Shown: piece after piece, positions 901-17,922 of the stretch
How positions within the stretch are numbered: position 1 is the stretch's first letter
Layout: every line of letters starts with the position of its first letter
Source: an uncultured archaeon
GTDB taxonomy: Archaea > Asgardarchaeota > Lokiarchaeia > Sigyniarchaeales > SOKP01
Reading direction: 5' to 3'
Assembly: GCA_964583985.1 (NCBI GenBank)
Contig: CAZOYD010000065.1
Coordinates: forward strand, 1 to 18,169
DNA: 18,169 nucleotides
Position numbers and translations under genes: made by a program
The notes under the pieces: generated by a model
What the model saw: the letters and a program-made list of their open reading frames with translations, nothing else
Told to the model about the DNA's origin: nothing
Database searches by the model: none

Positions 901-1161
901 TCATAACATTTGTAAAATCTCGAAAGACGATATGGCCGGATCAGAAACTTCTTTCATCTTTAATCGGAATCCTTCACGAGCCATTACTGATTTAAATTTA
1001 TTGGATCTAAAATAGTTCTTTAGAACTTGTCCGTGTTTGTATCCATGGATGATAATGATTTCCGCATCACCGTTTAATTTACATTCTTCTAAAGCACTTA
1101 ATACTTCATCAACAGCGCTCCATAGTTCATGTCCGTGTACGTTTATCTCCATTAAACTCAC
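901..1161 (-). CDS. Stand-alone Smr (MutS2 C-terminal-like) domain protein
   Basis: EINVHG...A...IIIIHGYKHGQVLK matches the Smr pattern DLHG...IIHGxG.G.L. GTG start at 1161, alternative ATG at 1152. Confidence 0.75.
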   Translation of the reverse strand: MSLMEINVHGHELWSAVDEVLSALEECKLNGDAEIIIIHGYKHGQVLKNYFRSNKFKSVMAREGFRLKMKEVSDPAISSFEILQML

Positions 1162-1430
1162 GAAATTTTCATTCAGAATTAACTTTTTCCATTTTCCATT
1201 CTTTAATAATCTTTTTTCTACTAATAATAAAAATAAATTGATAGTTTGGATGGTTTACGTACCCTAAAAAAATAAAACAATTCCATTATGGCATATTAAT
1301 TATTTTCTCGCTCTTGGTTAAGGAAATATATCTTTAAAACTGTGATAATCACGTGGAAATGAATCCTTGATTTAACACTTGCTATTTACGAGTGTATAAT
1401 ATAGATATTATATTCGTTTTTTTGACATGC

Positions 1431-1448
1431 AAGGATAAATATTTATAA
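1431..1448 (+). promoter_or_regulatory. Putative archaeal BRE/TATA element for the OB-HIRAN gene
   Basis: Purine-rich AAGGATAAATA followed by TTTATAA (1442-1448), about 60 nt upstream of the ATG at 1509. Weak in this AT-rich background. Confidence 0.3.
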
Positions 1449-1508
1449 GATATTACTCTATTAATAAAATACGACAAAAATACATTTCGATATTTAAAGG
1501 CTTGCAGC

Positions 1509-2603
1509 ATGAAGATTAAAGATCTGAAGCCCAATTCAAATGTAAGCGTTCGAGTTCGGGTTTGTTCAAAAGGAACTGAAAGAACCGTCGCAAAAAATCG
1601 CTATAATCCCTTAAGAGTCTGTGAGTTTAAAGTAGGAGATGATAGTGGAGTTGTGGTATTAATAATGTTCAATGATGCTATTGATAAGTTAACTCGTGTT
1701 ATGGGGAGTGTGATTGATATTCAAGATGGGTGGTCAAAAAAATGGCAAGGTAAAATGCAACTTTCGATGGGGAAAGGTGGATCGTGGGATGTTGTCAATG
1801 ATAAAAACTTTCCGACGTCACAAGCAATTCTTCAAGGAAATGGAAGCGCGTCAGCATCAATCAAAAAGGCGATACCATCTGTAGGCACAAAAATAAAAGA
1901 TTTAAAACCAGATTCGAATGCGAATCTTAAATTAAGAATCTGTGCGAAAGCAGAAGAGAGAGTCCTTTCAAAGAACCGGACCGTACCTTTACGTGTATGT
2001 AATTTCACGGTAGGTGATGATTCCGGACATGTTAATTTAACCTTGTTTAATGATGAGATTGACAGGTTTTCTTCTCTTATGGGACAGGTTGTTGAGTTAA
2101 GAGATGGATGGGCTAAAATGTGGCAAGGAGACCTTCAATTATCGATGGGTAGATCGGGGTCTTTGGAAATAATTAACGACAAGAACTTTCCATCTATCAA
2201 TCAAATCTTACCTAGTATTCCCAATCAAACCGTGAAACTTGATTCCAGTACTCTTCAAGCTGATATTTTAGATTTTGGCACTAACACTCCATCCTTAGTG
2301 AAAGTTTCCGAGATCATCCCAAACATGAATATTTCTACCAAGGTAAGGGTATGCGAGCAAAGTGCCATAAAATACGTGAATCAGCGTGATGGGTCCAAGT
2401 TACGGGTTCGAGATTTTTTGATTGGCGACGAAACGGGATTAATTCCGTTTACGGCTTTTAATGGAGAAATCAAAGAAATAGGGGCTTTTACGGGGAACGT
2501 GATAAATTTAGAAAATTGTTGGGCGAAATTCTGGAATAAAACTCTTCAAGTCTCGAAGGGACAAAATGGAAGTTGGAAACTTGCTGACGATAGAGGATTT
2601 CCC
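1509..2603 (+). repeat. Intragenic triplication of the OB-fold unit (approx. 1509-1814, 1887-2192, 2298-2603)
   Basis: Units 1 and 2 are closest (KIKDLKPNSN/KIKDLKPDSN, PLRVC, VGDDSG, QLSMG, NDKNFP). Unit 3 is more diverged (IGDETG, LQVSKG, DDRGFP). Confidence 0.85.
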
Positions 2604-3047
2604 ACCAAAGAGGAACTTTTAGATAATTATAAAAAGTTGCAACTTGAGACACTCTCCGAATTATCCCATGGTATGGTTTATTATTCATCGATCAAAGGCA
2701 TACGGTTCCAAGAACATGGAAAAACGATTTATAAACAAGATGCCATGACTGAGTTGGAATTAATACCCGAGCCAGAAAATCCATATGATAATAAAGCGGT
2801 TGGAGTATGGTTAGACGGTAAGCAAATGGGGTATATCCCACGAACGCAAAACAAGGCAATTTTTAAGGCTTTAGAGGATGATGATCCTCAAATAAAATGC
2901 ATACTCGGCATTTTCAAGCCCGCTCTTAACACGGGGTATAATTTGCCACATCATGTAAAAGACATGCCGATAACGATTTCGACACATGTTCAAGTAATTG
3001 ATTGGCGTCCTGTTATATTATTGCCTGAAGATGCAATGGCATTTTAA
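1509..3047 (+). CDS. ssDNA-binding protein: three tandem SSB-type OB folds + HIRAN domain + conserved WRP..PED..AF C-terminal tail
   Basis: Three ~100-aa repeats (KIKDLKP...VGDDSG...F...GW...WQG..QLS.G...FP) resemble Sulfolobus SSB/hSSB1 OB folds. From aa ~389, IKGIRF...LELIPEPENPYDNKAVGVWLDGKQMGYIPR is the HIRAN signature (EPxNxYDxxAV...GYxPR). Confidence 0.85.
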   Translation: MKIKDLKPNSNVSVRVRVCSKGTERTVAKNRYNPLRVCEFKVGDDSGVVVLIMFNDAIDKLTRVMGSVIDIQDGWSKKWQGKMQLSMGKGGSWDVVNDKNFPTSQAILQGNGSASASIKKAIPSVGTKIKDLKPDSNANLKLRICAKAEERVLSKNRTVPLRVCNFTVGDDSGHVNLTLFNDEIDRFSSLMGQVVELRDGWAKMWQGDLQLSMGRSGSLEIINDKNFPSINQILPSIPNQTVKLDSSTLQADILDFGTNTPSLVKVSEIIPNMNISTKVRVCEQSAIKYVNQRDGSKLRVRDFLIGDETGLIPFTAFNGEIKEIGAFTGNVINLENCWAKFWNKTLQVSKGQNGSWKLADDRGFPTKEELLDNYKKLQLETLSELSHGMVYYSSIKGIRFQEHGKTIYKQDAMTELELIPEPENPYDNKAVGVWLDGKQMGYIPRTQNKAIFKALEDDDPQIKCILGIFKPALNTGYNLPHHVKDMPITISTHVQVIDWRPVILLPEDAMAF

Positions 3048-3056
3048 TTCTCTTTT

Positions 3057-4454
3057 TTATAACATAAGCTTTGCGATTATTTCAGGAAGATTATTTGGTG
3101 TAGATGCGAGTACATCAATTCCCAAAGTATTCATGAATTTAGCGTAGTTCCGATCAAACATTGGTTCATTATTATAATCCAATGCGGCTACTCCAAGTAT
3201 TTTTGTTTGACCTTCTAATACTTTCTTGAGCGTGTCAGTTAATCGGTCATATCCGCCTCCTTCATAAAAATCACTTATAATTACCATAATAGTCTTTTTA
3301 GGATTTTTAATTAATGATTGAGCATATTGTACAGCCCTCGCAATGTTAGTTCCACCTCCTAATTGAACGGTCATTAAAACCTCCACAGGATCGTCAATCT
3401 TATCGGAAAGATCGACAACTTGAGTATCAAAAATTATTAGATTTGTATGAACTGCGGGAAGGGTTGCAAAAATCGATGCAATCACCACGGAGAAAATTAT
3501 TGAATTCGTCATAGAACCACTTTCATCTATTAAAATTACTATTTGCCATGGTTTCTTCTTCTTTTCGGCACAATAAAACCGAGGTTCTGCCATGATTATT
3601 TTTTTTAGAGTAGGATCATAATGTTTTAAATTTCGACGAATGCTATCCTTCCAGTCAATATTTCGAAAAACCTTGATGGGGGTGTGCATATCGCGTTTGA
3701 TTGCCCCAATGATGTGCTTTTCAACATCATCTTTAAATTTATCCTTTAAATTTTCAACCACTTTTCTAACAACATTACGTGCAATATCCTTGACATCATT
3801 TGGAAGCATATTCTTTAAACTAATAATTGTTTTAACCATCTCTAAACTTGGTTCTACCTTTTCAAACAATTCAGGATTAGCTATAATATCTCTTATATCT
3901 GATCGTTCGATCAGATCTTTTTCTAATACTTCTTTCGTATCAGTTGGGAATAATTCCTTTACATTTTCGATCCAATCTGGAATTGAGAGATTGCTTGGAC
4001 CTAAACCAGCAGTTCTTCTCTGGTCTTGTGTCCCTCCATATACTAAGTCTAATGTCTCATCCATTTTTTTTAATTTATCTTTGTCAAATCCTTCTTGTCG
4101 AACTCCACTCGATTTCCCACTCGTACCCTTACCTCTAACACTATTCCCTTTTCCTGCGACTTTACTCTTTCCGGTGCCAGTACCTTTGCTACTCTTACCT
4201 TTTCCTGCTTTATCATCCTTATTCTCCTCACCCTCTCCTTTGCTCTCGCCTTCATCCTCGCTTTTCTCTTGATCTTCTCCCTCACCCTCTCCTTCATCTT
4301 GATTATCCTGATCATGTGATGCGTCATCTGAAAAATTTATATCCTGCTCTTCTGCTTTTTTACCTAAAATCAATCTCCACCTATCCATTGCTTCTCTTTG
4401 ATCTTCCGGTAATCTTGTGAACTTATCTTCATCAAAAATTTGGTTAGGACCCAT
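3057..4454 (-). CDS. VWA (CoxE/YehP-like) domain protein
   Basis: N-terminal RWRLILG motif, IDWKDSIRRNL, MIDAS DESGSM, QLGGGTNIARA and ISDFYEGG. Last gene of a MoxR operon. Confidence 0.9.
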   Translation of the reverse strand: MGPNQIFDEDKFTRLPEDQREAMDRWRLILGKKAEEQDINFSDDASHDQDNQDEGEGEGEDQEKSEDEGESKGEGEENKDDKAGKGKSSKGTGTGKSKVAGKGNSVRGKGTSGKSSGVRQEGFDKDKLKKMDETLDLVYGGTQDQRRTAGLGPSNLSIPDWIENVKELFPTDTKEVLEKDLIERSDIRDIIANPELFEKVEPSLEMVKTIISLKNMLPNDVKDIARNVVRKVVENLKDKFKDDVEKHIIGAIKRDMHTPIKVFRNIDWKDSIRRNLKHYDPTLKKIIMAEPRFYCAEKKKKPWQIVILIDESGSMTNSIIFSVVIASIFATLPAVHTNLIIFDTQVVDLSDKIDDPVEVLMTVQLGGGTNIARAVQYAQSLIKNPKKTIMVIISDFYEGGGYDRLTDTLKKVLEGQTKILGVAALDYNNEPMFDRNYAKFMNTLGIDVLASTPNNLPEIIAKLML

Positions 4455-4459
4455 TCAAT

Positions 4460-6943
4460 TCACACCTTTCCAAACCATTCTTCAAATATTTTGCGTAATT
4501 TATCGTCTACATTCTTAAAGAAGGTTTTAATGTCTTTTTCAATAAATTCTTTTAATTCTACATGTTTTTTTTTAATAAGACCATAATGCTCTGCAAGTTT
4601 TTCCACGAATATTTCATACTGTGTCGGGTGAAGTTCAGAAAAACTTTTTCTCATGGCAGGTAATATAGCAGAGAAAACATCCCAACTTACAGTTCCAACA
4701 ACTTCAGCCAATAACTTCACAATTTCTTGATTGATTAGTATTTTTATTTGACAAACATAAATGAGACCATAAATCAATGTACCAATTTTTACTCGGATTG
4801 AATCTATGCTATTCAGATATTCATAAATAATAATTTCGATATCAGAAACACTCAAATAATTCAATAAATATAGAATTCCGATGGAACCTCCCTTGATAAA
4901 TTCATTACTAGTATTTTCAATACAAGTGTTCATGCTTTCAATGTATACATTCAAATCGAGATCGATATTTTGTATCGAAATTAAAGTATTACCTAGCATT
5001 TTCATCGCATCAATATATTTTACCTCATCTGCTTCTGGAGGATTTGCGAAATTGGGTATAGAAAAACAACAAGTATAGTAAGTTCTCTGAATTAATTTTT
5101 CCATGAGTGCCAAATTTGACTTCTGGCTTTCCATCATTGACATGAACTGGAAAATCATGATCAAATTAAAAAATCCTTCTGTTAAGCTCAAAAATTCATT
5201 ATCTTCTTCAAGAGAGTTTAAACATTCATCAAATAGATCTTGAAAATGATCACTATACCCCATTGAGAGACTCTGAAACAATATATTCGTGATAAGGCTA
5301 AAATGTTTAACATTTTTTTTAGTTTCTTCAACCAGCTTGTTCTTACTTGCTTCCTCCAAGGTTGAGCCATAAGTACTCAATTCAACTAATTGCACGTCAA
5401 TATTTGGATTCCACCTTAATCTCCATTTTTCAGTGAATGTCCCAGTAATTCCATTCAAGACATCTGGACCTCGCAAGCGTTCAACGTAATTTATCCCCAA
5501 GAATTTAATTTTCCAAAACAATTGAGAAATCTTGGATTCTGCGTCCTCACGTAAGTTTAGATTTTTAGTCTGGTTTTTATCCTCGGGCTTTATACCGTTG
5601 GTTTCTAGTTGAAGATAAAAATCTCTTTGAAGTGGTAATTTGCCAATATCAGGAGTTACTTTCCCTATTTTGTAACCAATGGTTTTGTTTTGGATTAAGG
5701 ATTCTAAATATTTTCCTTCTATTTCTGGATTTCCCTTAATGAGCACCATGTAGATTGAATCAACGATATCTTTGAGATCTGGTTCTTCTCGTCGCCGTAA
5801 CATTGCAAGCATCTTGGCTCCTTGAAAAGAGTTTATGGAATCAGAAACTGAGACGATGATGCTTTTTTCTCTAGCTTCTTTGAAAATGTCGGTAATAAAG
5901 TCTAATGCAACAGCTTCATACGGATGATCTTGTTTGGAAGAGAATTTTCGCCAGACCATGTCGTAAAATTGAGGAGATTTATTTCCTGATAAATACCCTG
6001 AGTTTTGACTAATTCGATAATAAGAGAAAGGAATTAATGAGTTAATTAAGTTTTTTGTTGGAAAGTTAAAATTCTGGGATTCGCTATCTATTAATGCAAT
6101 AGAATGTATACCCCCGGTTATCACCAGCACGTCTTTTTCCTTGACTTTATATTTTTTTATGTAATTCTCAATATTATATTTCATGTACGATTCTCTTGCG
6201 AATGTACCATTTGCCTCAAGTAATTTATCATCAATTGTTTGTCGAAGGTAAGCACAAAAAAGTAACATGCTTTCTCTTAATTGATCGATATCAGATTTAT
6301 TAGCACCAATTTCAAATAGAGTCTCCCATGCTTCATTAAAATCTTCAAAATCAAAAACTTGAGCAAATTTATTATAAAAACCACTTAATGAATAAAACTT
6401 TTCTCCTTGCAACTGAAAAAGTTCCGGATCTTTAGTTGGATCCTTCAAATTTGCAGATTTATACGAAATCAACCCCGTAAGAGGTAGATCTATAAAGTGA
6501 ATAGGAATCTTTCTTTTTATAGATTCAGAAAGCGCAACAAACTCAGGAGAATATGAAACGAATGGATAATATGCTTCAAATTTAGCTGGTATTGAACTGT
6601 CGGGACTAAAAATTCCATTTAAACCAAAAGTATTATTTAGATCCGCATAAAGTGAGAGAATTGCAACTGGAGGGATAGTCTTCTTGTCAATCAAGTATTT
6701 TATTAAGTCATCCGCTAAAACTGGACCTTCTACCAAAATTAATTTTGGTTCGTATTTCTCAATCCATTTTTGAACTAAAATGGTAGAGCCTGGTGAGTGA
6801 TGACGAATTGGCAAATATTTAACTTTAGAATTCTTTACACGTGAAACCTTGGAATCAATTATTGAATTGTCAATACCCATTGATGTTCCTATCTCAAAAA
6901 GTATCTTTTTGAGGTTAGCAGCGTTTAAATAAGTATCACTCAT
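4460..6943 (-). CDS. DUF5682 family (YehM-like) protein
   Basis: PIRHHSPG, ILVEGP, YSPE, FIDLP, RESYM, VITGGIH, LIPFSYYRISQNSGYLSG, LVELSTYGSTLEEA and LPAMRKSFS motifs. It lies between the MoxR ATPase and the VWA gene, as in yehL-yehM-yehP. Confidence 0.85.
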   Translation of the reverse strand: MSDTYLNAANLKKILFEIGTSMGIDNSIIDSKVSRVKNSKVKYLPIRHHSPGSTILVQKWIEKYEPKLILVEGPVLADDLIKYLIDKKTIPPVAILSLYADLNNTFGLNGIFSPDSSIPAKFEAYYPFVSYSPEFVALSESIKRKIPIHFIDLPLTGLISYKSANLKDPTKDPELFQLQGEKFYSLSGFYNKFAQVFDFEDFNEAWETLFEIGANKSDIDQLRESMLLFCAYLRQTIDDKLLEANGTFARESYMKYNIENYIKKYKVKEKDVLVITGGIHSIALIDSESQNFNFPTKNLINSLIPFSYYRISQNSGYLSGNKSPQFYDMVWRKFSSKQDHPYEAVALDFITDIFKEAREKSIIVSVSDSINSFQGAKMLAMLRRREEPDLKDIVDSIYMVLIKGNPEIEGKYLESLIQNKTIGYKIGKVTPDIGKLPLQRDFYLQLETNGIKPEDKNQTKNLNLREDAESKISQLFWKIKFLGINYVERLRGPDVLNGITGTFTEKWRLRWNPNIDVQLVELSTYGSTLEEASKNKLVEETKKNVKHFSLITNILFQSLSMGYSDHFQDLFDECLNSLEEDNEFLSLTEGFFNLIMIFQFMSMMESQKSNLALMEKLIQRTYYTCCFSIPNFANPPEADEVKYIDAMKMLGNTLISIQNIDLDLNVYIESMNTCIENTSNEFIKGGSIGILYLLNYLSVSDIEIIIYEYLNSIDSIRVKIGTLIYGLIYVCQIKILINQEIVKLLAEVVGTVSWDVFSAILPAMRKSFSELHPTQYEIFVEKLAEHYGLIKKKHVELKEFIEKDIKTFFKNVDDKLRKIFEEWFGKV

Positions 6944-6949
6944 GGGAGT

Positions 6950-8227
6950 TTATCTAACTTGATTTTTAAAGGTATCAGCAAACTCTCTCCATGAAGAAGA
7001 GTTGTTTGCCCTTACTCTCGCGACCATATTGAAATATTCTCTTAATTTCGAAAGATTTTCTTTATCATCTTTGACGACTGCATCTATTATATTCATGGCA
7101 ATATGCTTGGGTTCAATCTCTGATTTGCCAAAGAATTTTGCATATATTGCACTATCAAGGAGTAATGAAATCTCTTCCGAAGTCGACATTACCGTTGAAA
7201 TGGGGGTAAATCGACCTCCACTCGTACTACGACCAGTTCTTAATTCTTGAAACACTGTAATCAATAAATCTAACGTATCTTCGGGAATCTGAATTTTAAA
7301 TCCTATCTTTTTTAGCAATGCATCGGTTCGCTGTGTCACGATTTTGCGTTCTAGATCTTTATCTTGAATAACCGGAATGTAGATAAAGTTGAAACGACGT
7401 TTTAATGCAGCGCTCATCTCGTTTACACCTCGATCTCTATCGTTAGCACTTGCGATTACATTGAATCCTGGAATTCCAAATACCATGTGTTCGGAACCTA
7501 ATTCAGGAAGTGGGACGACTTTTTCAGATAAAATAGATATCATACTATCCTGAATTTCTTGCGGACATCGCGTCAATTCTTCAAATCGTAAAATTTTACC
7601 TTCTCTCATTGCATTTATGGTAGGAGAGGGTACTAATGCTTCTTGACTAGGCCCATCTGAAACGAGTAATGCATAATTCCACGAATATCTAATTTGATCC
7701 TCGGTAGTTCCTGCAGTTCCTTGAATCAGATAGGTACTTTTACCACAAATTGCGGCGGCAAGGTGTTCTGAAAGCCACGATTTCGCTGTTCCAGGCTCTC
7801 CAATTAACATGAGCGCTCTTTCACTGGCTAAAGTAACAATAGATTTTTGAATCAGATCCCGTTGCCCATAGAATTTCGTGGAAATTTTAATTTTTTTCTC
7901 AGATCCATTTACTTTTAGGTTAAATTCCTCATCCGAACCAGTAATAAACAATTCAACCATCTTGGGGGATAATGTCCAATTAGGTGGTTTTGGATAGGTA
8001 TCATTTTGAGCTAAAGCCATTAATTCTTCAACATGCAATTCTTCAACAGGAAAGCGAATCTTTTCGATTTGTTTGCTACTGAGTTTTTGATCAGATCCAA
8101 GATCAATCTTATTAATTTTTGGTAGTGTCGCCTTTTGTACCGCAGGAGCTTTAGGTTTAGTTACTGGTGACTTTGCGGTAGTAGCTTTAGATGCAGGTAA
8201 TTTCTGTGGAGCTTTTTTTTTTGCCAT
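6950..8227 (-). CDS. MoxR-family AAA+ ATPase, YehL-like subfamily
   Basis: Walker A GEPGTAKS, IQGTAGTTEDQIRYSWNYA, Walker B LRFEELTR, and ANDRDRGVNEMSAALKRRF (sensor 1/Arg finger). Confidence 0.93.
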   Translation of the reverse strand: MAKKKAPQKLPASKATTAKSPVTKPKAPAVQKATLPKINKIDLGSDQKLSSKQIEKIRFPVEELHVEELMALAQNDTYPKPPNWTLSPKMVELFITGSDEEFNLKVNGSEKKIKISTKFYGQRDLIQKSIVTLASERALMLIGEPGTAKSWLSEHLAAAICGKSTYLIQGTAGTTEDQIRYSWNYALLVSDGPSQEALVPSPTINAMREGKILRFEELTRCPQEIQDSMISILSEKVVPLPELGSEHMVFGIPGFNVIASANDRDRGVNEMSAALKRRFNFIYIPVIQDKDLERKIVTQRTDALLKKIGFKIQIPEDTLDLLITVFQELRTGRSTSGGRFTPISTVMSTSEEISLLLDSAIYAKFFGKSEIEPKHIAMNIIDAVVKDDKENLSKLREYFNMVARVRANNSSSWREFADTFKNQVR

Positions 8228-8254
8228 AATCGACCCTTTTTTTAAATTTTAATT

Positions 8255-9397
8255 TTATTTGACTTTATATACTGATTTTAATAATTCTCTATTACTTACA
8301 GCACTTTTTGATAAATTTGGATATGAAAATTGATTATCAGAAACAATACCAAGAGGATATAAATTAAGTTGCCCATTTTCTAGGATAAGTTTACAAAATA
8401 TCCCCTCAATTGGTTTCTTCCTACCCTTGTAATTTTTAAATTCTTCAATTAATTTTAAATTCCCTTTCTTTTCAGGTATTCTTATAATCAAGGGATAATC
8501 TTCCTTATGAGTAAGTTCAAAAACAATCATTGGAGTGATGTCTCCTTCTTGACCTTCTTTATGAAACTCAATGATATTTACCTCTTTTACGTATAAATAA
8601 TCAATAAAACTTGCAGGTAAGTCAAAAGGGGTTATTTCATGATCTTTGACAATTTTCTGATATATTTCTTTGGAATTATAATAAAATTTATCTAATTTTG
8701 AGATGGAAACATGGGTATCTTCTGAAGATTCTTCGTCAATATATATTTTTGATTCGGGATTTTTTTCTAAGAAGATAAGGTCATCTTTTTCATTACATGG
8801 AATTTGATCGCCTTCAATATATTTTAAAAGTATTGACGAAACCGGACATGTAGGAACTGAATTAGGTAGATCAAGGTGTAGTAAAGCCTCTGCAGTCACT
8901 CCTGATTTGTATGGAAGCATTAAATGCCATTTCAATATTTTTCCTCTTGTCTTTCCAAACAATGAAAGGAAATAAAACACAAATCCAACGATCGATCCTT
9001 CTAAATGTATTTTTTCTGTTCCAACCACTTTGAGAATTAGTTTGCTTTTTATCTCTGCCTCTAATGGTGTACCCATTAATCTATCAAATATGATAGGTTT
9101 TTCATCCATCAAGCCTTCCTGTAAAGAAAAAGCTCGGCTTAAAAGCCAACAGTTACTAAGAAAGAACACATACCGTTCAATATTGAATGCATCACGATTT
9201 TCAAGAAATCTTTTTAACTCTATATGTAAGTACCTTAAAGATGCAGCCAATCGATAGGCTTTTAATTGGGAGGTGCTCTGCAAAAAAAACTCTATGTTTT
9301 TAATATTCTCTTTCGAGACAAAATTCAATCCACTATATGCTAAACTTTCAATATAATCCTTTACTTGGACAGCAACATTTCCTAATTGAAGACTCAA
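8255..9397 (-). CDS. Uncharacterised protein in the MoxR operon (N-terminal helical bundle, beta-rich C-terminal part)
   Basis: 380-aa ORF with TTG start, preceded by a GAGGAG Shine-Dalgarno-like site at the end of the upstream gene (4-nt gap). No family recognised with certainty. Confidence 0.8.
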   Translation of the reverse strand: MSLQLGNVAVQVKDYIESLAYSGLNFVSKENIKNIEFFLQSTSQLKAYRLAASLRYLHIELKRFLENRDAFNIERYVFFLSNCWLLSRAFSLQEGLMDEKPIIFDRLMGTPLEAEIKSKLILKVVGTEKIHLEGSIVGFVFYFLSLFGKTRGKILKWHLMLPYKSGVTAEALLHLDLPNSVPTCPVSSILLKYIEGDQIPCNEKDDLIFLEKNPESKIYIDEESSEDTHVSISKLDKFYYNSKEIYQKIVKDHEITPFDLPASFIDYLYVKEVNIIEFHKEGQEGDITPMIVFELTHKEDYPLIIRIPEKKGNLKLIEEFKNYKGRKKPIEGIFCKLILENGQLNLYPLGIVSDNQFSYPNLSKSAVSNRELLKSVYKVK

Positions 9398-9401
9398 TTA
9401 T

Positions 9402-9743
9402 TTACTCCTCTTCTTTTAAAGTATTTTTAACACTCTCTACTGTCATGATCTTCTCAAGCATTCTGGTTACTGCTATTATACGTAAAATCTCGATCGATAT
9501 CTCTTTTTTTAAATTGATAGGAATAGGTTTATGAGTCAAATTTTGTATTTTTTCTAAAAATGATTCTAAAAGCTCACTCAGTGTCGTAAAATTCATCTCC
9601 TTTAGCCTGTCTTTTAAATCCACGAGATCGGAGCTGTTTTCGTAACTTACACTGTCTATTCCTTTGATTATAATTTCATTTAACTTGATTTTAATAATAT
9701 CCAGAATATGGAAGCTTTCTCTTATTTGTTCATCTTGTGCCAC
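9402..9743 (-). CDS. Small helical protein in the MoxR operon
   Basis: 113-aa ORF with GTG start, tightly packed in the operon. Amphipathic helical pattern with a GIDSVSYEN motif. Confidence 0.75.
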   Translation of the reverse strand: MAQDEQIRESFHILDIIKIKLNEIIIKGIDSVSYENSSDLVDLKDRLKEMNFTTLSELLESFLEKIQNLTHKPIPINLKKEISIEILRIIAVTRMLEKIMTVESVKNTLKEEE

Positions 9744-9762
9744 TTTTCTCTACCCATCTTGA

Positions 9763-10257
9763 TTAAAAAGCAAAAAAATCCTCTGGTAATATTTCAACGG
9801 GGCGCCATTCAATCACGCCTTCTAAAGCATTTTGATATTTTAAAAAAATCCCTGTAGCTTCGTTTTTATCGAAATATGGCTTATTTAGCTTTGTTTTATC
9901 CACCCATTTTATCATTTCATCAATTGTTCCTTGATTTGTCTTTATGACCGCAATCAACGCCAATATAATATGCTTGCAAATTTTCCCCCTAAGACCACCG
10001 CAAGGATGAAGATTTTGAGTACCGCAAAAAAAATTCCCCTTGGATGAAAGTTTTACGGCATATTCTAAACTTTCTGGATGGGTCTGTGATTTAATAACTG
10101 CTTTAAACGATTCAGCATTTTTGTCAATATAAAGGAGATTTATTTCTTTTTTGTACATATTTATAGCTTTATCAATCCGAGGAGGAATCGTATCATCTTT
10201 TATTGATGAATTGAGCTGTTTTACAAATTTTAAGATACTATTATCTGTTATACTCAT
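9763..10257 (-). CDS. SWIM-like zinc-finger protein with WRP..PED..AF C-terminal tail; first gene of the operon
   Basis: AVIKSQT....EYAVKL....FFCGTQNLHPCGGLRGKICKHIILAL contains the SWIM-type CxH followed by a hydrophobic helix. Ligand spacing is C-x7-C-x7-C-x-H. Confidence 0.8.
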   Translation of the reverse strand: MSITDNSILKFVKQLNSSIKDDTIPPRIDKAINMYKKEINLLYIDKNAESFKAVIKSQTHPESLEYAVKLSSKGNFFCGTQNLHPCGGLRGKICKHIILALIAVIKTNQGTIDEMIKWVDKTKLNKPYFDKNEATGIFLKYQNALEGVIEWRPVEILPEDFFAF

Positions 10258-10406
10258 ATTAATCCCTAGACTTTTTTGTATTTATTATAAATAGATAAAT
10301 ACTTATTAAAAACTAACGATTTTTTTTTGCCTAAGAAAGCAGTTAGACTTATGAAAGAATTTTGCATATATCATTATAAATCACTATCTAAAAATCCAAA
10401 ACGACA
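10258..10406. promoter_or_regulatory. Divergent promoter region with TATA-like boxes on both strands
   Basis: Minus-strand TTTATAAT (10284-10291) lies about 26 nt upstream of the ATG at 10257. Plus-strand TTATAAA (10374-10380) lies 26 nt upstream of the ATG at 10407. Both spacings fit archaeal leaderless or short-leader transcripts. Confidence 0.45.
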
Positions 10407-11030
10407 ATGAATAAAACTCAACTTCCTACTACTTGTCCGAATTGTGGGAAACCACTTCGTGAGCGAAAGGGGAAATATGGACCGTTTTTAGGTTGTATGG
10501 GTTATCCGGAGTGTAACTTTACATTTGATCTATCAGAACAATCAAGGATCACATGTCCAATATGCGATAAAAAGTTAAAAATACGCCTTGGAAGAATTAA
10601 CAAGTACTTAAGTTGTAGCGGTTATCCCGAATGTACATTTAATTATTTCCCAGATAGCGAGGAACAAGAATTCGTCCTCTCTTGTCCCGATTGTAAAAAT
10701 GATCTTTTTACAGATAAACACCGAAATTTACAAATTTTATGTAAAGGATGTAAATTTACGTTGAGCATGAACCGAGATGATATGATTCTCTGTCCAAATT
10801 GTAATAAACCATTAACGGTTAGAACGGGAACATATGGAAGATTTCTTGGATGTACGGGGTATCCCGACTGCCGATTTGCTAGCAATCTAGAACGTTCCTA
10901 TACAGGGAAACAAAAAAAAGTGTACTGTTCAAAATGCGGAAGTGCATTGGAATTAATATCTGCAAGTTCTGGAGATTTTCTTCGATGTACATCACATCCA
11001 AAATGTGATTTCACTTATATTCTTGAATAA
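10407..11030 (+). CDS. Stand-alone topoisomerase I-type C4 zinc-ribbon repeat protein (YrdD-like)
   Basis: Repeats CPNCGKPL..RKGKYGPFLGCMGYPEC, CPICDKKL...GRINKYLSCSGYPEC, a shortened CPDC...CKGC, CPNC...GTYGRFLGCTGYPDC and CSKC...GDFLRCTSHPKC. No catalytic domain. Confidence 0.9.
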   Translation: MNKTQLPTTCPNCGKPLRERKGKYGPFLGCMGYPECNFTFDLSEQSRITCPICDKKLKIRLGRINKYLSCSGYPECTFNYFPDSEEQEFVLSCPDCKNDLFTDKHRNLQILCKGCKFTLSMNRDDMILCPNCNKPLTVRTGTYGRFLGCTGYPDCRFASNLERSYTGKQKKVYCSKCGSALELISASSGDFLRCTSHPKCDFTYILE

Positions 11031-11163: not shown

Positions 11164-11796
11164 TTACATTTTTGATTCTTCTACCACTTTGATCGCATCG
11201 GCCTTTACTTTTACTGTTGCTACGGAATCAAGGATTTTTTTATGCCAAATAGTTTGAATATCTACCATATTTTTTAGAAGAACTTGCATTTTTTCTAATT
11301 TAACTTTATTAAAGTCCTCAGTTGCTACTTTTACAACGTTTTGTTCTTTGGCAGCGTTGTCTTTCGCAGTTTTTAATGCTGTTTCAGCCGTTTCTATTTC
11401 GTTTGGCTTTAATTTTTCTTTTGGTTTGCTTTGGATTTTAGTTAGATGCTTTTCAGCTTTTTCTAATTCTTTTGTAGCCTTTTCAGCTTCATTTTGTTCA
11501 GTTTGGAGTTTTTGTAGACCAATTAAAAGATCATTTAGTGGTGCAATGTATTCTTCTCGGAGTCTCTTGATTTTCTCCGCGCTTTCTTTTTCAATCATTT
11601 CAAATGTCGAAGCTAATGAATTTATTGCTTGTCCTAAAGAAGGAGTCTCTGTTTCAGCATAAGCTTTTAACGCATTGGAAGTCTTTTTAATTTCCCTTGT
11701 GACATTTTCCTCTGCATTAATATATTGATTACTTTCTTTAATCAACTCACTAATTTTATTGCTCGTAATTCCTAAAGCATTTGTCAAGTTATCCAT
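11164..11796 (-). CDS. BAR-domain-like all-helical protein (resembles FAM92/CIBAR-type BAR)
   Basis: 210 aa with three long amphipathic helices. AYAETETPSLGQAINSLA...RLREEYIAPL...FNKVKLEKMQVLLKNMVDIQTIWHKKILD recalls BAR-domain helix signatures. Confidence 0.65.
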   Translation of the reverse strand: MDNLTNALGITSNKISELIKESNQYINAEENVTREIKKTSNALKAYAETETPSLGQAINSLASTFEMIEKESAEKIKRLREEYIAPLNDLLIGLQKLQTEQNEAEKATKELEKAEKHLTKIQSKPKEKLKPNEIETAETALKTAKDNAAKEQNVVKVATEDFNKVKLEKMQVLLKNMVDIQTIWHKKILDSVATVKVKADAIKVVEESKM

Positions 11797-16620: not shown

Positions 16621-17133
16621 TTAAGCTCTATTTAACATCAATTTTGCTAGTTTCTTAAAAGATTTTTCGACATTTTCTCCTGTCTTGCTGGAACATTCAA
16701 GAAATAAATTTAACCTCATTTTCCTAGCGAGTTCGCTCCCTTCTTCTGGATTAACTTTTCTCATGTATTCTAAATCTGATTTGGCTCCGAGTAACAAAAT
16801 AGGAAAGGACTTTTTAGCTCCATTTACGATTGATAGCCAATTTGCCACATGTAAAAAGGAAGAGTAATCTGTAATATCGTACATCAATATACCGCCTCTG
16901 GCGCCTGCGATATAATGAGGAAACATGAATCGAAATCTTTCTTCACCAGCAAAATCCCATATCATTAATTTTACTCTCTGATTATCGACAATTACAGATT
17001 TGTATTCAAAATCTACCCCAATAGTCATACATCTATCTGGAATAAAAGCTTTAGTCAAAAAACGCTTCGCTAAGGATGTTTTTCCTGAACCGGCATCTCC
17101 AAAAATGACTACTTTAAAGATTTTGCCACTCAT
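16621..17133 (-). CDS. Rab-like small GTPase (Ras superfamily, Asgard type)
   Basis: G1 GDAGSGKTS, G2 TIGVDF, G3 WDFAGEERF, G4 GAKSD, G5 CSSK. RabF-like motifs IGVDF, KLMIW, YIAGA and LMYDIT. No C-terminal cysteine prenylation motif. Confidence 0.92.
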   Translation of the reverse strand: MSGKIFKVVIFGDAGSGKTSLAKRFLTKAFIPDRCMTIGVDFEYKSVIVDNQRVKLMIWDFAGEERFRFMFPHYIAGARGGILMYDITDYSSFLHVANWLSIVNGAKKSFPILLLGAKSDLEYMRKVNPEEGSELARKMRLNLFLECSSKTGENVEKSFKKLAKLMLNRA

Positions 17134-17502: not shown

Positions 17503-17922
17503 TCAGGTTGGTGGATCAGGGGGTTTTTCAGGAAATGGTGATTGGGATCCATAATCAGCACCAAATTTGTCAGGATTTTTTAATATTTCTTTTATTTTGG
17601 AAATTAAATCTATTCTTAATCCTGAACTAGTAGAAACAGCTAATACATCTTTTGGTCCTGCTTGTAAAATTAATAAGTAACCATTGCTTCCTTTAGCAAA
17701 AAACGTATCGAATTTATCCATATTTATCTCTTCTACCGCGCTTTTAGATAAGGAAAGTAAAGCTGCAATTATCGCTGAAATTTTCGTCTCATCAACACCT
17801 TGTGGGAGCACTGACGCGATATGAGATCCTTCAAAAGTTACAATCGCAGCATATTCTACTTCGGGAGCTAGCGTTAAAATTGATTGCAAAATGCCATCAG
17901 TTAATGGTCTCATATAAGTCAC
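17503..17922 (-). CDS. Roadblock/LC7 (MglB-like) domain protein with Pro-rich tail
   Basis: EVEYAAIVTFEGSHIASVLP..VDETKISAIIAALLSLS...KGSNGYLLILQAGPKDVLAV. GTG start at 17922 or ATG at 17913. Confidence 0.88.
   Translation of the reverse strand: MTYMRPLTDGILQSILTLAPEVEYAAIVTFEGSHIASVLPQGVDETKISAIIAALLSLSKSAVEEINMDKFDTFFAKGSNGYLLILQAGPKDVLAVSTSSGLRIDLISKIKEILKNPDKFGADYGSQSPFPEKPPDPPT

Follow-up and report, generated by a model that had tools for sequence, protein, structure and literature searches.

The window analysed here spans the entire contig C65 (18.2 kb), part of an Asgard (Promethearchaeota) genome bin of 3.8 Mb. Embedded in it is a minus-strand run of six genes for a YehL-type MoxR-DUF5682-VWA machine, met by a convergent gene for a protein with three OB folds and a HIRAN domain (OB-HIRAN). 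The six genes, from 9763-10257 down to 3057-4454, were separated by 19, 4, 27, 6 and 5 nt. They encoded, in this order, a SWIM-like zinc finger, a 113-aa and a 380-aa protein, a MoxR AAA_5 ATPase, a DUF5682 protein and a VWA_CoxE protein. The stop codon of OB-HIRAN was 9 nt from that of the VWA gene. This layout had been described in an earlier annotation of the window (the original prediction), and a check of the open reading frames (ORFs) returned it exactly. The zinc-finger and OB-HIRAN proteins end in the same short tail, and the features concerned were:

9763..10257, minus strand: SWIM-like zinc-finger subunit, 164 aa, recognised by its Cys/His pattern and a structural match
9402..9743, minus strand: 113-aa small protein, no family match
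8255..9397, minus strand: 380-aa subunit, no family match
6950..8227, minus strand: YehL-type MoxR AAA+ ATPase (AAA_5, PF07728, 3.3e-37)
4460..6943, minus strand: DUF5682 protein (YehM-like), 827 aa (PF18934, 7.9e-92, 309 bits)
3057..4454, minus strand: VWA_CoxE (YehP-like) adaptor (PF05762, 8.7e-43)
1509..3047, plus strand: OB-HIRAN, 512 aa (Pfam Ssb-like_OB three times, HIRAN at residues ~403-462, tail)
9766-9816, minus strand: zinc-finger tail VIEWRPVEILPEDFFAF, C-terminal end of the 164-aa protein
2994-3044, plus strand: OB-HIRAN tail VIDWRPVILLPEDAMAF, C-terminal end of the 512-aa protein

The two tails had VI[DE]WRPVxxLPEDxxAF-stop in common, with 12 of 17 residues identical, at the extreme C-termini of both proteins. 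Their coding sequences differed at synonymous sites, which points to conservation at the protein level and not to a recent DNA copy. In the 3.8-Mb genome, which has 25,419 ORFs with a length of 40 aa or more, no third ORF ended in the tail. Across the phylum, the DNA pattern of the tail was detected in 13 of 300 genomes, all 13 from the window's own order, and the reversed control pattern had no match in 340 genomes. Judged from the sequences, the likeness of the two tails is not due to chance. In general form, the tail reads [IV][DE]WRPxxxxPEDxxA[FYL]-COOH. Two readings of this motif were ruled out: a sorting signal of the PEP-CTERM or PGF-CTERM type, because no hydrophobic helix follows PED, and a proteasome HbYX motif, since Ala instead of Tyr stands in the penultimate position.

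When 1.8 billion representative proteins were scanned in full with HMMER, 430 relatives of the 164-aa protein came up. In nearly all of them, the alignment (~140 residues) was located at the extreme C-terminus of a longer protein. The tail, in the form [IV]DWRPTET[IV]PEDYYA[FYL], was the C-terminal end in 144 of the 150 best homologues, which indicates that it is the ancestral end of the zinc-finger subunit. By sequence comparison, it has been transplanted onto HIRAN proteins in Promethearchaeota, here with fusion to three OB folds. Pentapeptide repeats, a DNA-mimic fold, preceded the module in all six long zinc-finger+tail homologues checked (P0035, P0041, P0045, P0050, P0055 and P0067), and a BRCT domain was additionally present in two of them (P0055 and P0067). 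The gene order in L099 was that of the window (pentapeptide-zinc finger-tail, 109 aa, 370 aa, AAA_5, DUF5682, VWA_CoxE), and its first gene carried the consensus tail of the long pentapeptide-repeat homologues.

The zinc-finger family had an invariant C-x7-C-x7-C-x-H pattern, formed in the window protein by C78, C86, C94 and H96. Its AlphaFold2 (AF2) monomer model was of high confidence (pLDDT 91), and the best structural match was ZSWIM8, with Z 6.3 and a root-mean-square deviation of 3.2 over 94 residues; the next match had Z 3.7, and the caution line of the tool is at Z 8. Foldseek gave no match with this model, and the sequence search gave no solved-structure relative. Neither the 164-aa protein nor any of 81 homologous modules matched Pfam SWIM (PF04434) at E 0.01. 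Of the "SWIM" label in the original prediction, the Cys/His pattern and the modest ZSWIM8 match thus remain, without the Pfam family, and we call the subunit SWIM-like only.

In OB-HIRAN, the HIRAN domain (PF08797) scored 34.4 bits against a cut-off of 24.7 at residues 403-462, and Ssb-like_OB (PF21473) scored 67.2 bits against a cut-off of 24 over three stretches, the internal repeats being 41% and 34% identical. It was the sole gene of its type in the genome. All 11 orthologues (35-84% identity, two or three OB folds) kept the tail, one of them with two extra residues beyond it, and two kept it though not adjoining the operon. A typical tail-positive genome had one zinc-finger+tail gene and one gene for a 137-aa HIRAN+tail protein, in which the HIRAN profile scored 40.8-46.2 bits. 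WRP and PED were invariant in an alignment of 11 HIRAN+tail sequences, as were N and D of an NxYD stretch, with Y kept in at least 90% of the rows. This Y may be the counterpart of HLTF Y93, a tentative assignment that does not come from a structural alignment.

The HIRAN+tail gene recurred beside the operon in three arrangements. In G243, a genome of the same genus, it was convergent with the operon in the place of OB-HIRAN; in G026 it was the seventh operon gene, 7 nt after VWA; and in G036 it was the first. It was unlinked from the operon in G047, G232 and G298. HIRAN homologues in genomes where DUF5682 was not detected were 268-562 aa long. The tail was absent from the three Promethearchaeum HIRAN proteins whose ends were read, including that of P. 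syntrophicum MK-D1; the remaining homologues matched the HIRAN part of the query only. A word-based search for short HIRAN+tail proteins returned two fragments only, and the motifs of the contig scan, being specific to the Asgard subfamily, were uninformative on HIRAN+tail proteins in bacteria. In G115, a HIRAN+tail gene (L064:10427-10987) adjoined a 186-aa VWA remnant and no other operon gene was found in that genome; the locus looks like a decayed copy.

Tail-bearing genes were found together with the zinc-finger gene and, in most cases, with the operon. Conservation of the tail, its exclusivity and its co-occurrence with the operon tie OB-HIRAN to the machine beyond adjacency, a link supported at the level of sequence and genome content. 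The original prediction had offered the shared tail as such evidence, and the 11 tail-bearing orthologues and the three genomes with HIRAN+tail beside the operon bore this out.

The operon is of a known but uncharacterised type. YehL-type MoxR operons occur in Escherichia coli, Bacteroides and Asgard archaea and, to our knowledge, no client or function is known for them. The predicted YehL-type MoxR-DUF5682-VWA identity was confirmed: besides the PF18934 match of the DUF5682 protein, the ATPase was 43% identical to E. coli YehL (2e-96), with an intact Walker A motif (GEPGTAKS), and the VWA protein was 38% identical to YehP (7e-94), with an intact DxSxS metal-site motif (DESGS aligned to DQSGS). 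The E. coli yehL-yehM-yehP(-yehQ) cluster has the homologous MoxR, DUF5682 and VWA_CoxE genes in the same order and, like the window operon, a zinc-finger protein accompanying the core. It differs in several respects. YehQ has no tail, and in a profile comparison with the 164-aa protein only the CxC..CxH zinc motif aligned (E 0.032, probability 1.6%). The E. coli cluster has no 113-aa or 380-aa gene, and no annotated E. coli product carries the tail. E. coli has YehI/MolR (DUF4132), whereas PF13569 was not found in the whole window genome, with controls matched.

Both the ATPase and the VWA protein of the archaeon had low-complexity segments in addition to the parts shared with E. coli YehL and YehP. 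The MoxR protein had a basic, Lys/Pro/Ala-rich N-terminal extension of ~55 residues (window 8063-8227), while E. coli YehL is without it. Such a basic Lys/Pro/Ala/Thr-rich extension of 45-70 residues was seen in most Asgard copies; that of G026 was weak and not markedly basic. In the VWA protein, a linker of ~90 residues (window ~4080-4350) was inserted relative to YehP. This insert, first acidic and then Gly/Lys-rich, was 90-200 residues long among the copies and split two motifs that are contiguous in YehP.

The Pfam model of DUF5682 also detected E. coli among the control genomes, and a sequence search for solved-structure relatives of DUF5682 found none. Compared with the Tiki/ChaN superfamily, one of eight orthologues gave a single faint match (E 0.06); DUF5682 may contain a TraB/TIKI-type hydrolase, which the sequences neither establish nor exclude. 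The position of the 113-aa protein was conserved in G243, G047, G232, G026 and L003. Orthologues of the 380-aa protein were 34-83% identical; the protein matched no Pfam family, nor YehQ in a profile comparison. Its AF2 model was poor (pLDDT 47), too low for a structure search. A complex prediction of the 380-aa, 113-aa and HIRAN+tail proteins scored 0.14 against a mark of 0.32 and gives no answer on docking. The two promoter regions had in common only one 9-mer, as expected in AT-rich DNA.

DUF5682 was distributed patchily. None of the 23 other genomes from the same genus in a first sample gave a match, and among 40 relatives there were four full matches and one faint one; G243, of the same genus as the window, carries the operon. 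This pattern marks the module as accessory. The operon of G036 (L029/L072, C129) was reduced and consisted of HIRAN+tail, a 72-aa N-terminal zinc-finger fragment, a 140-aa protein, a 480-aa MoxR, DUF5682 and VWA. In G047, the core was on a third contig, apart from both tail genes. Intact zinc-finger+tail and HIRAN+tail genes were also present in two same-family genomes belonging to the same genus as G047, namely G198 (99% complete; loci L038 and L047/L060) and G237 (96%; loci L041 and L048).

Several proteins of other kinds ended in the tail. Among them were a UDG-superfamily protein (G027), an LRR protein (G036) and a 317-319-aa protein without assigned family, encoded divergently to the zinc-finger gene in both G232 and G298; G026 had further tail-ending proteins of 329 and 508 aa. 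These carriers were located at L019:1501-2310:-, L023:229-1545:+, L035:1501-2460:-, L045:1501-2454:-, L026 and L027. Two IMG/VR viral contigs encoded small proteins of 148 aa (L076:687-1133:+) and 91 aa (L078:2699-2974:-), both with no Pfam match. They end in DWRPSESLPEDYYAI and DWRPDSVIPEDYYAS, which resemble the consensus of the long homologues in the form DWRPxxxxPEDYYA[IS], and could be decoys or cargo.

In full-text literature searches, no publication turned up that deals with the tail or says what operons of this type do. The searches likewise found no functional study of DUF5682 or yehLMPQ, and none tying SWIM, MoxR and VWA together to DNA damage or PafBC to SWIM. A comparable published case is the ddrTUVWX operon of Deinococcus deserti (Deide_18730 to Deide_18690), whose five genes begin with a SWIM gene and end with a VWA CoxE-like gene; under IrrE/DdrO control, radiation raises its expression more than 10-fold (PMC5552922). 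It resembles the window operon in its SWIM-annotated first gene, its VWA CoxE-like last gene and the "conserved proteins" between them, and it likewise lacks an assigned function; it differs in being bacterial, in having five genes instead of six, and in that no HIRAN partner has been reported. D. radiodurans is without ddrTUVWX (PMC5552922), and DUF5682 was not found in our D. radiodurans control genome, two absences that are consistent with each other.

HLTF and Rad5 are fork-remodelling enzymes, and the window protein resembles their HIRAN domains by a Pfam HIRAN score above the cut-off and the conserved NxYD stretch. In HLTF, however, HIRAN is fused to an SNF2 motor in one chain, whereas in the window it is on a separate protein, with or without OB folds among the relatives, and seems to connect via the short tail to an AAA+ motor that is unrelated. 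The HLTF HIRAN domain binds single-stranded DNA (ssDNA) in a pocket bordered by Y72 and Y93 (PMC4666394).

Other MoxR ATPases work with VWA adaptors as well. In the MoxR-VWA pairs CbbQ-CbbO, NorQ-NorD and CoxD-CoxE, the VWA domain holds the client. The same is true of RavA-ViaA (PMC3893208). The window operon is like these four in combining a MoxR ATPase with a VWA adaptor whose metal-site motif is intact. It differs in that the known clients are metabolic enzymes, while the proteins associated here are predicted DNA binders, and in its four extra subunits.

C-terminal docking peptides are known from bacterial SSB, with the tip DDDIPF-COOH, and from Hsp70 and Hsp90, whose EEVD-COOH is bound by TPR clamps. 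The tail is comparable to these as a short, acidic-then-hydrophobic C-terminal peptide, on a predicted DNA-binding protein and portable between proteins. It is unrelated to them in sequence and longer, with a WRP block and a PED block, so that the analogy is a functional one only.

Taken from its sequence, the window contains one complete copy of a tail-bearing branch of the YehL-type MoxR machine, together with a dedicated accessory 3xOB-HIRAN protein. We give a little better than even chances to a docking-peptide model for this branch. The tail would be a docking element through which the zinc-finger subunit and the HIRAN protein share one binding site; that site could belong to the core machine or to the SWIM-like module itself. 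Single-stranded DNA with a free 3' end would be the ligand of the OB and HIRAN domains, and the ATPase and VWA adaptor would thereby be brought to DNA ends, at stalled or broken forks or at damage, where the motor would remodel or remove something. Physical docking, the receptor, DNA-end binding and motor action are what we infer here. Outside support for a DNA role comes, by analogy, from the radiation induction of ddrTUVWX and ssDNA binding by HLTF; the DNA-related domains that are fused to the module or tagged with the tail, and the basic MoxR extension, further point this way. The original prediction had proposed sensing of ssDNA or 3' ends followed by loading or stripping of tagged proteins, an inference that fits the domains. 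The sequence comparisons support its central proposal, namely that the shared tail couples a DNA-end binder to the machine. The observation itself was confirmed, the overall interpretation only partly.

More tentatively, and with the odds clearly against it, the machine could be modular and addressed by its tail, with interchangeable sensors of DNA lesions or ends plugging into one MoxR-VWA-DUF5682 core via the common C-terminal peptide. In Asgard archaea the sensor role would fall to HIRAN, OB-HIRAN and the UDG-like protein, and in the long homologues to the zinc-finger module with its BRCT and pentapeptide-repeat fusions. Proteins stuck at stalled forks or damaged DNA would be cleared or remodelled by the core at the expense of ATP. 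If true, prokaryotes would have, assembled from unrelated parts, a counterpart of the eukaryotic motor-plus-adaptor repair systems, and the YehL family of MoxR ATPases would gain its first function. The tail of OB-HIRAN gives a first clue to what the long-unexplained YehLMP-related machine acts on. The kinds of protein that acquired the tail (HIRAN, OB folds, UDG-like, BRCT, pentapeptide) suggest, as does the response of the Deinococcus operon to radiation, that the field of action is DNA ends or DNA damage. A portable tail kept between Asgard archaea and hundreds of distant homologues also offers an experimental handle on the receptor. With three OB folds and HIRAN, the window protein is the most elaborate predicted DNA-end binder seen, which makes it a good candidate for biochemistry.

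Several observations weigh against the docking-peptide model. The homology of ddrTUVWX to the window operon is read from annotation and gene order alone, and for some tail carriers (the LRR protein, several unknowns) a connection with DNA is not evident. A same-genus query detected neither DUF5682 nor the 380-aa gene in G198 and G237, so that either the core is missing from the bins or the two tail proteins can work without it. G036 keeps HIRAN+tail despite a truncated zinc-finger gene and has no 380-aa gene at the operon locus. Furthermore, the AF2 monomer of the zinc-finger protein folds the tail (pLDDT 75-95) as a short strand and turn onto its own domain, a contact read from the DSSP strand assignment only and not from coordinates; the tail could therefore be an intramolecular element.

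The same fold-back suggests that the receptor of the tail, both in cis and in trans, may be the SWIM-like module. Taken further, the tail would be a ligand of this module, bound in cis within the zinc-finger protein and in trans when it comes from HIRAN and other carriers; these two proteins would form a pair of their own, and the link to the MoxR core would be secondary. The good confidence with which AF2 folds the tail onto the domain fits this, as do G198 and G237, which keep both tail genes with no core found, and G047, where both are unlinked from the core. We nevertheless hold it to be improbable, given that the contact comes from strand assignment, that the HIRAN+tail gene of G036 is beside the core despite the truncated zinc-finger gene, and that the zinc-finger gene heads the operon in most genomes. 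Somewhat less improbable, but still unlikely, is that the tail marks clients: as a handle or degron, it would let the AAA+ motor, assisted by VWA and perhaps by a DUF5682 hydrolase domain, pull zinc-finger and HIRAN proteins off DNA, unfold them or process them. C-terminal tags are read by other AAA+ machines, such as ssrA and, by CbbX, the tail of RbcL, and the tail discussed here is always at a free C-terminus. Tight DNA-end binders with OB and HIRAN domains could need active removal, and the faint Tiki/ChaN match in one of eight DUF5682 orthologues would suit a processing enzyme, but the hydrolase is not established. Pore-threaded tags seldom need 16 conserved residues, and a near-universal operon member with a strongly conserved fold, as the zinc-finger+tail gene is, fits a subunit better than a client.

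An antiviral role was touched on in the original prediction, which had named invading viral DNA among the possible triggers. In such a conflict system, HIRAN and OB domains would sense viral DNA ends, and viruses would answer with tail-bearing decoys. The patchy distribution of DUF5682 (none of the 23 same-genus genomes, four to five of the 40 relatives) agrees with this, though G243 is positive, as do one related locus that adjoins Mrr and ParDE genes and the small ORFs of the two viral contigs that end in the tail, which are known by sequence only. The HIRAN part of OB-HIRAN weakly matched the PADLOC candidate PDC-M03B (1e-7). The operon itself speaks against defence: in PADLOC-DB 2.0, five of the six proteins had no match and MoxR matched only IetA and REase_II at E 0.003-0.007, so that no model was hit at a meaningful level. 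No effector domain, whether nuclease or pore-former, is evident, and the Deinococcus operon belongs to a radiation regulon. We hold a defence function to be improbable.

Two further neighbours had been included in the system on adjacency in the original prediction:

901-1161, minus strand: Smr-like gene with a GTG start (Pfam Smr, PF01713, below cut-off)
10407-11030: Zn-ribbon gene (Zn_ribbon_Top1, four copies)

All neighbours of the operon had been considered nucleic-acid proteins, and this holds for the three OB folds, HIRAN and Zn_ribbon_Top1, but not firmly for Smr, which scored 24.2 bits against a cut-off of 25.7 over profile positions 1-47 of 77. Both genes have predicted nucleic-acid-binding domains and adjoin the operon in the window, and in one close relative (~80% identical) each lies beside it on one of two contigs, Zn-ribbon in L003 and Smr in L004. 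Apart from the operon, Smr copies of 83-86 aa, 78-87% identical, were present in at least seven same-genus genomes (L089-L095), and no operon was found among those also searched for DUF5682. The Zn-ribbon gene had a paralogue on contig C44 of the window genome and homologues, 47% identical, in G023 and G006, where no operon was found. Neither protein carried the tail, and neither gene was beside the operon in the more distant G243, G026, G036, G047 and G232. Because both families occur in same-genus genomes where no operon was found and neither adjoins its more distant copies, we leave Smr and Zn-ribbon out of the system; a wider system that takes them in is very improbable. Of the flanking genes, only the HIRAN+tail gene recurred beside those more distant copies, in G243, G026 and G036.

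The Smr gene was sometimes multi-copy, with three places in G016, and the in-frame stops seen in Smr homologues were natural stop codons three residues earlier. In G009 and G022, where no operon was found, a Zn-ribbon_Top1 paralogue was directly upstream of Smr, and Zn-ribbon and Smr may thus form a two-gene module of their own. Farther along the window were a BAR/FAM92-like gene (11164-11796, minus strand), a Ras-family GTPase gene (16621-17133, minus strand) and a Roadblock/LC7 gene (17503-17922, minus strand), with a WD40 gene also in the neighbourhood. Ras, Roadblock and BAR-like genes are eukaryote-like signatures typical of Asgard archaea.

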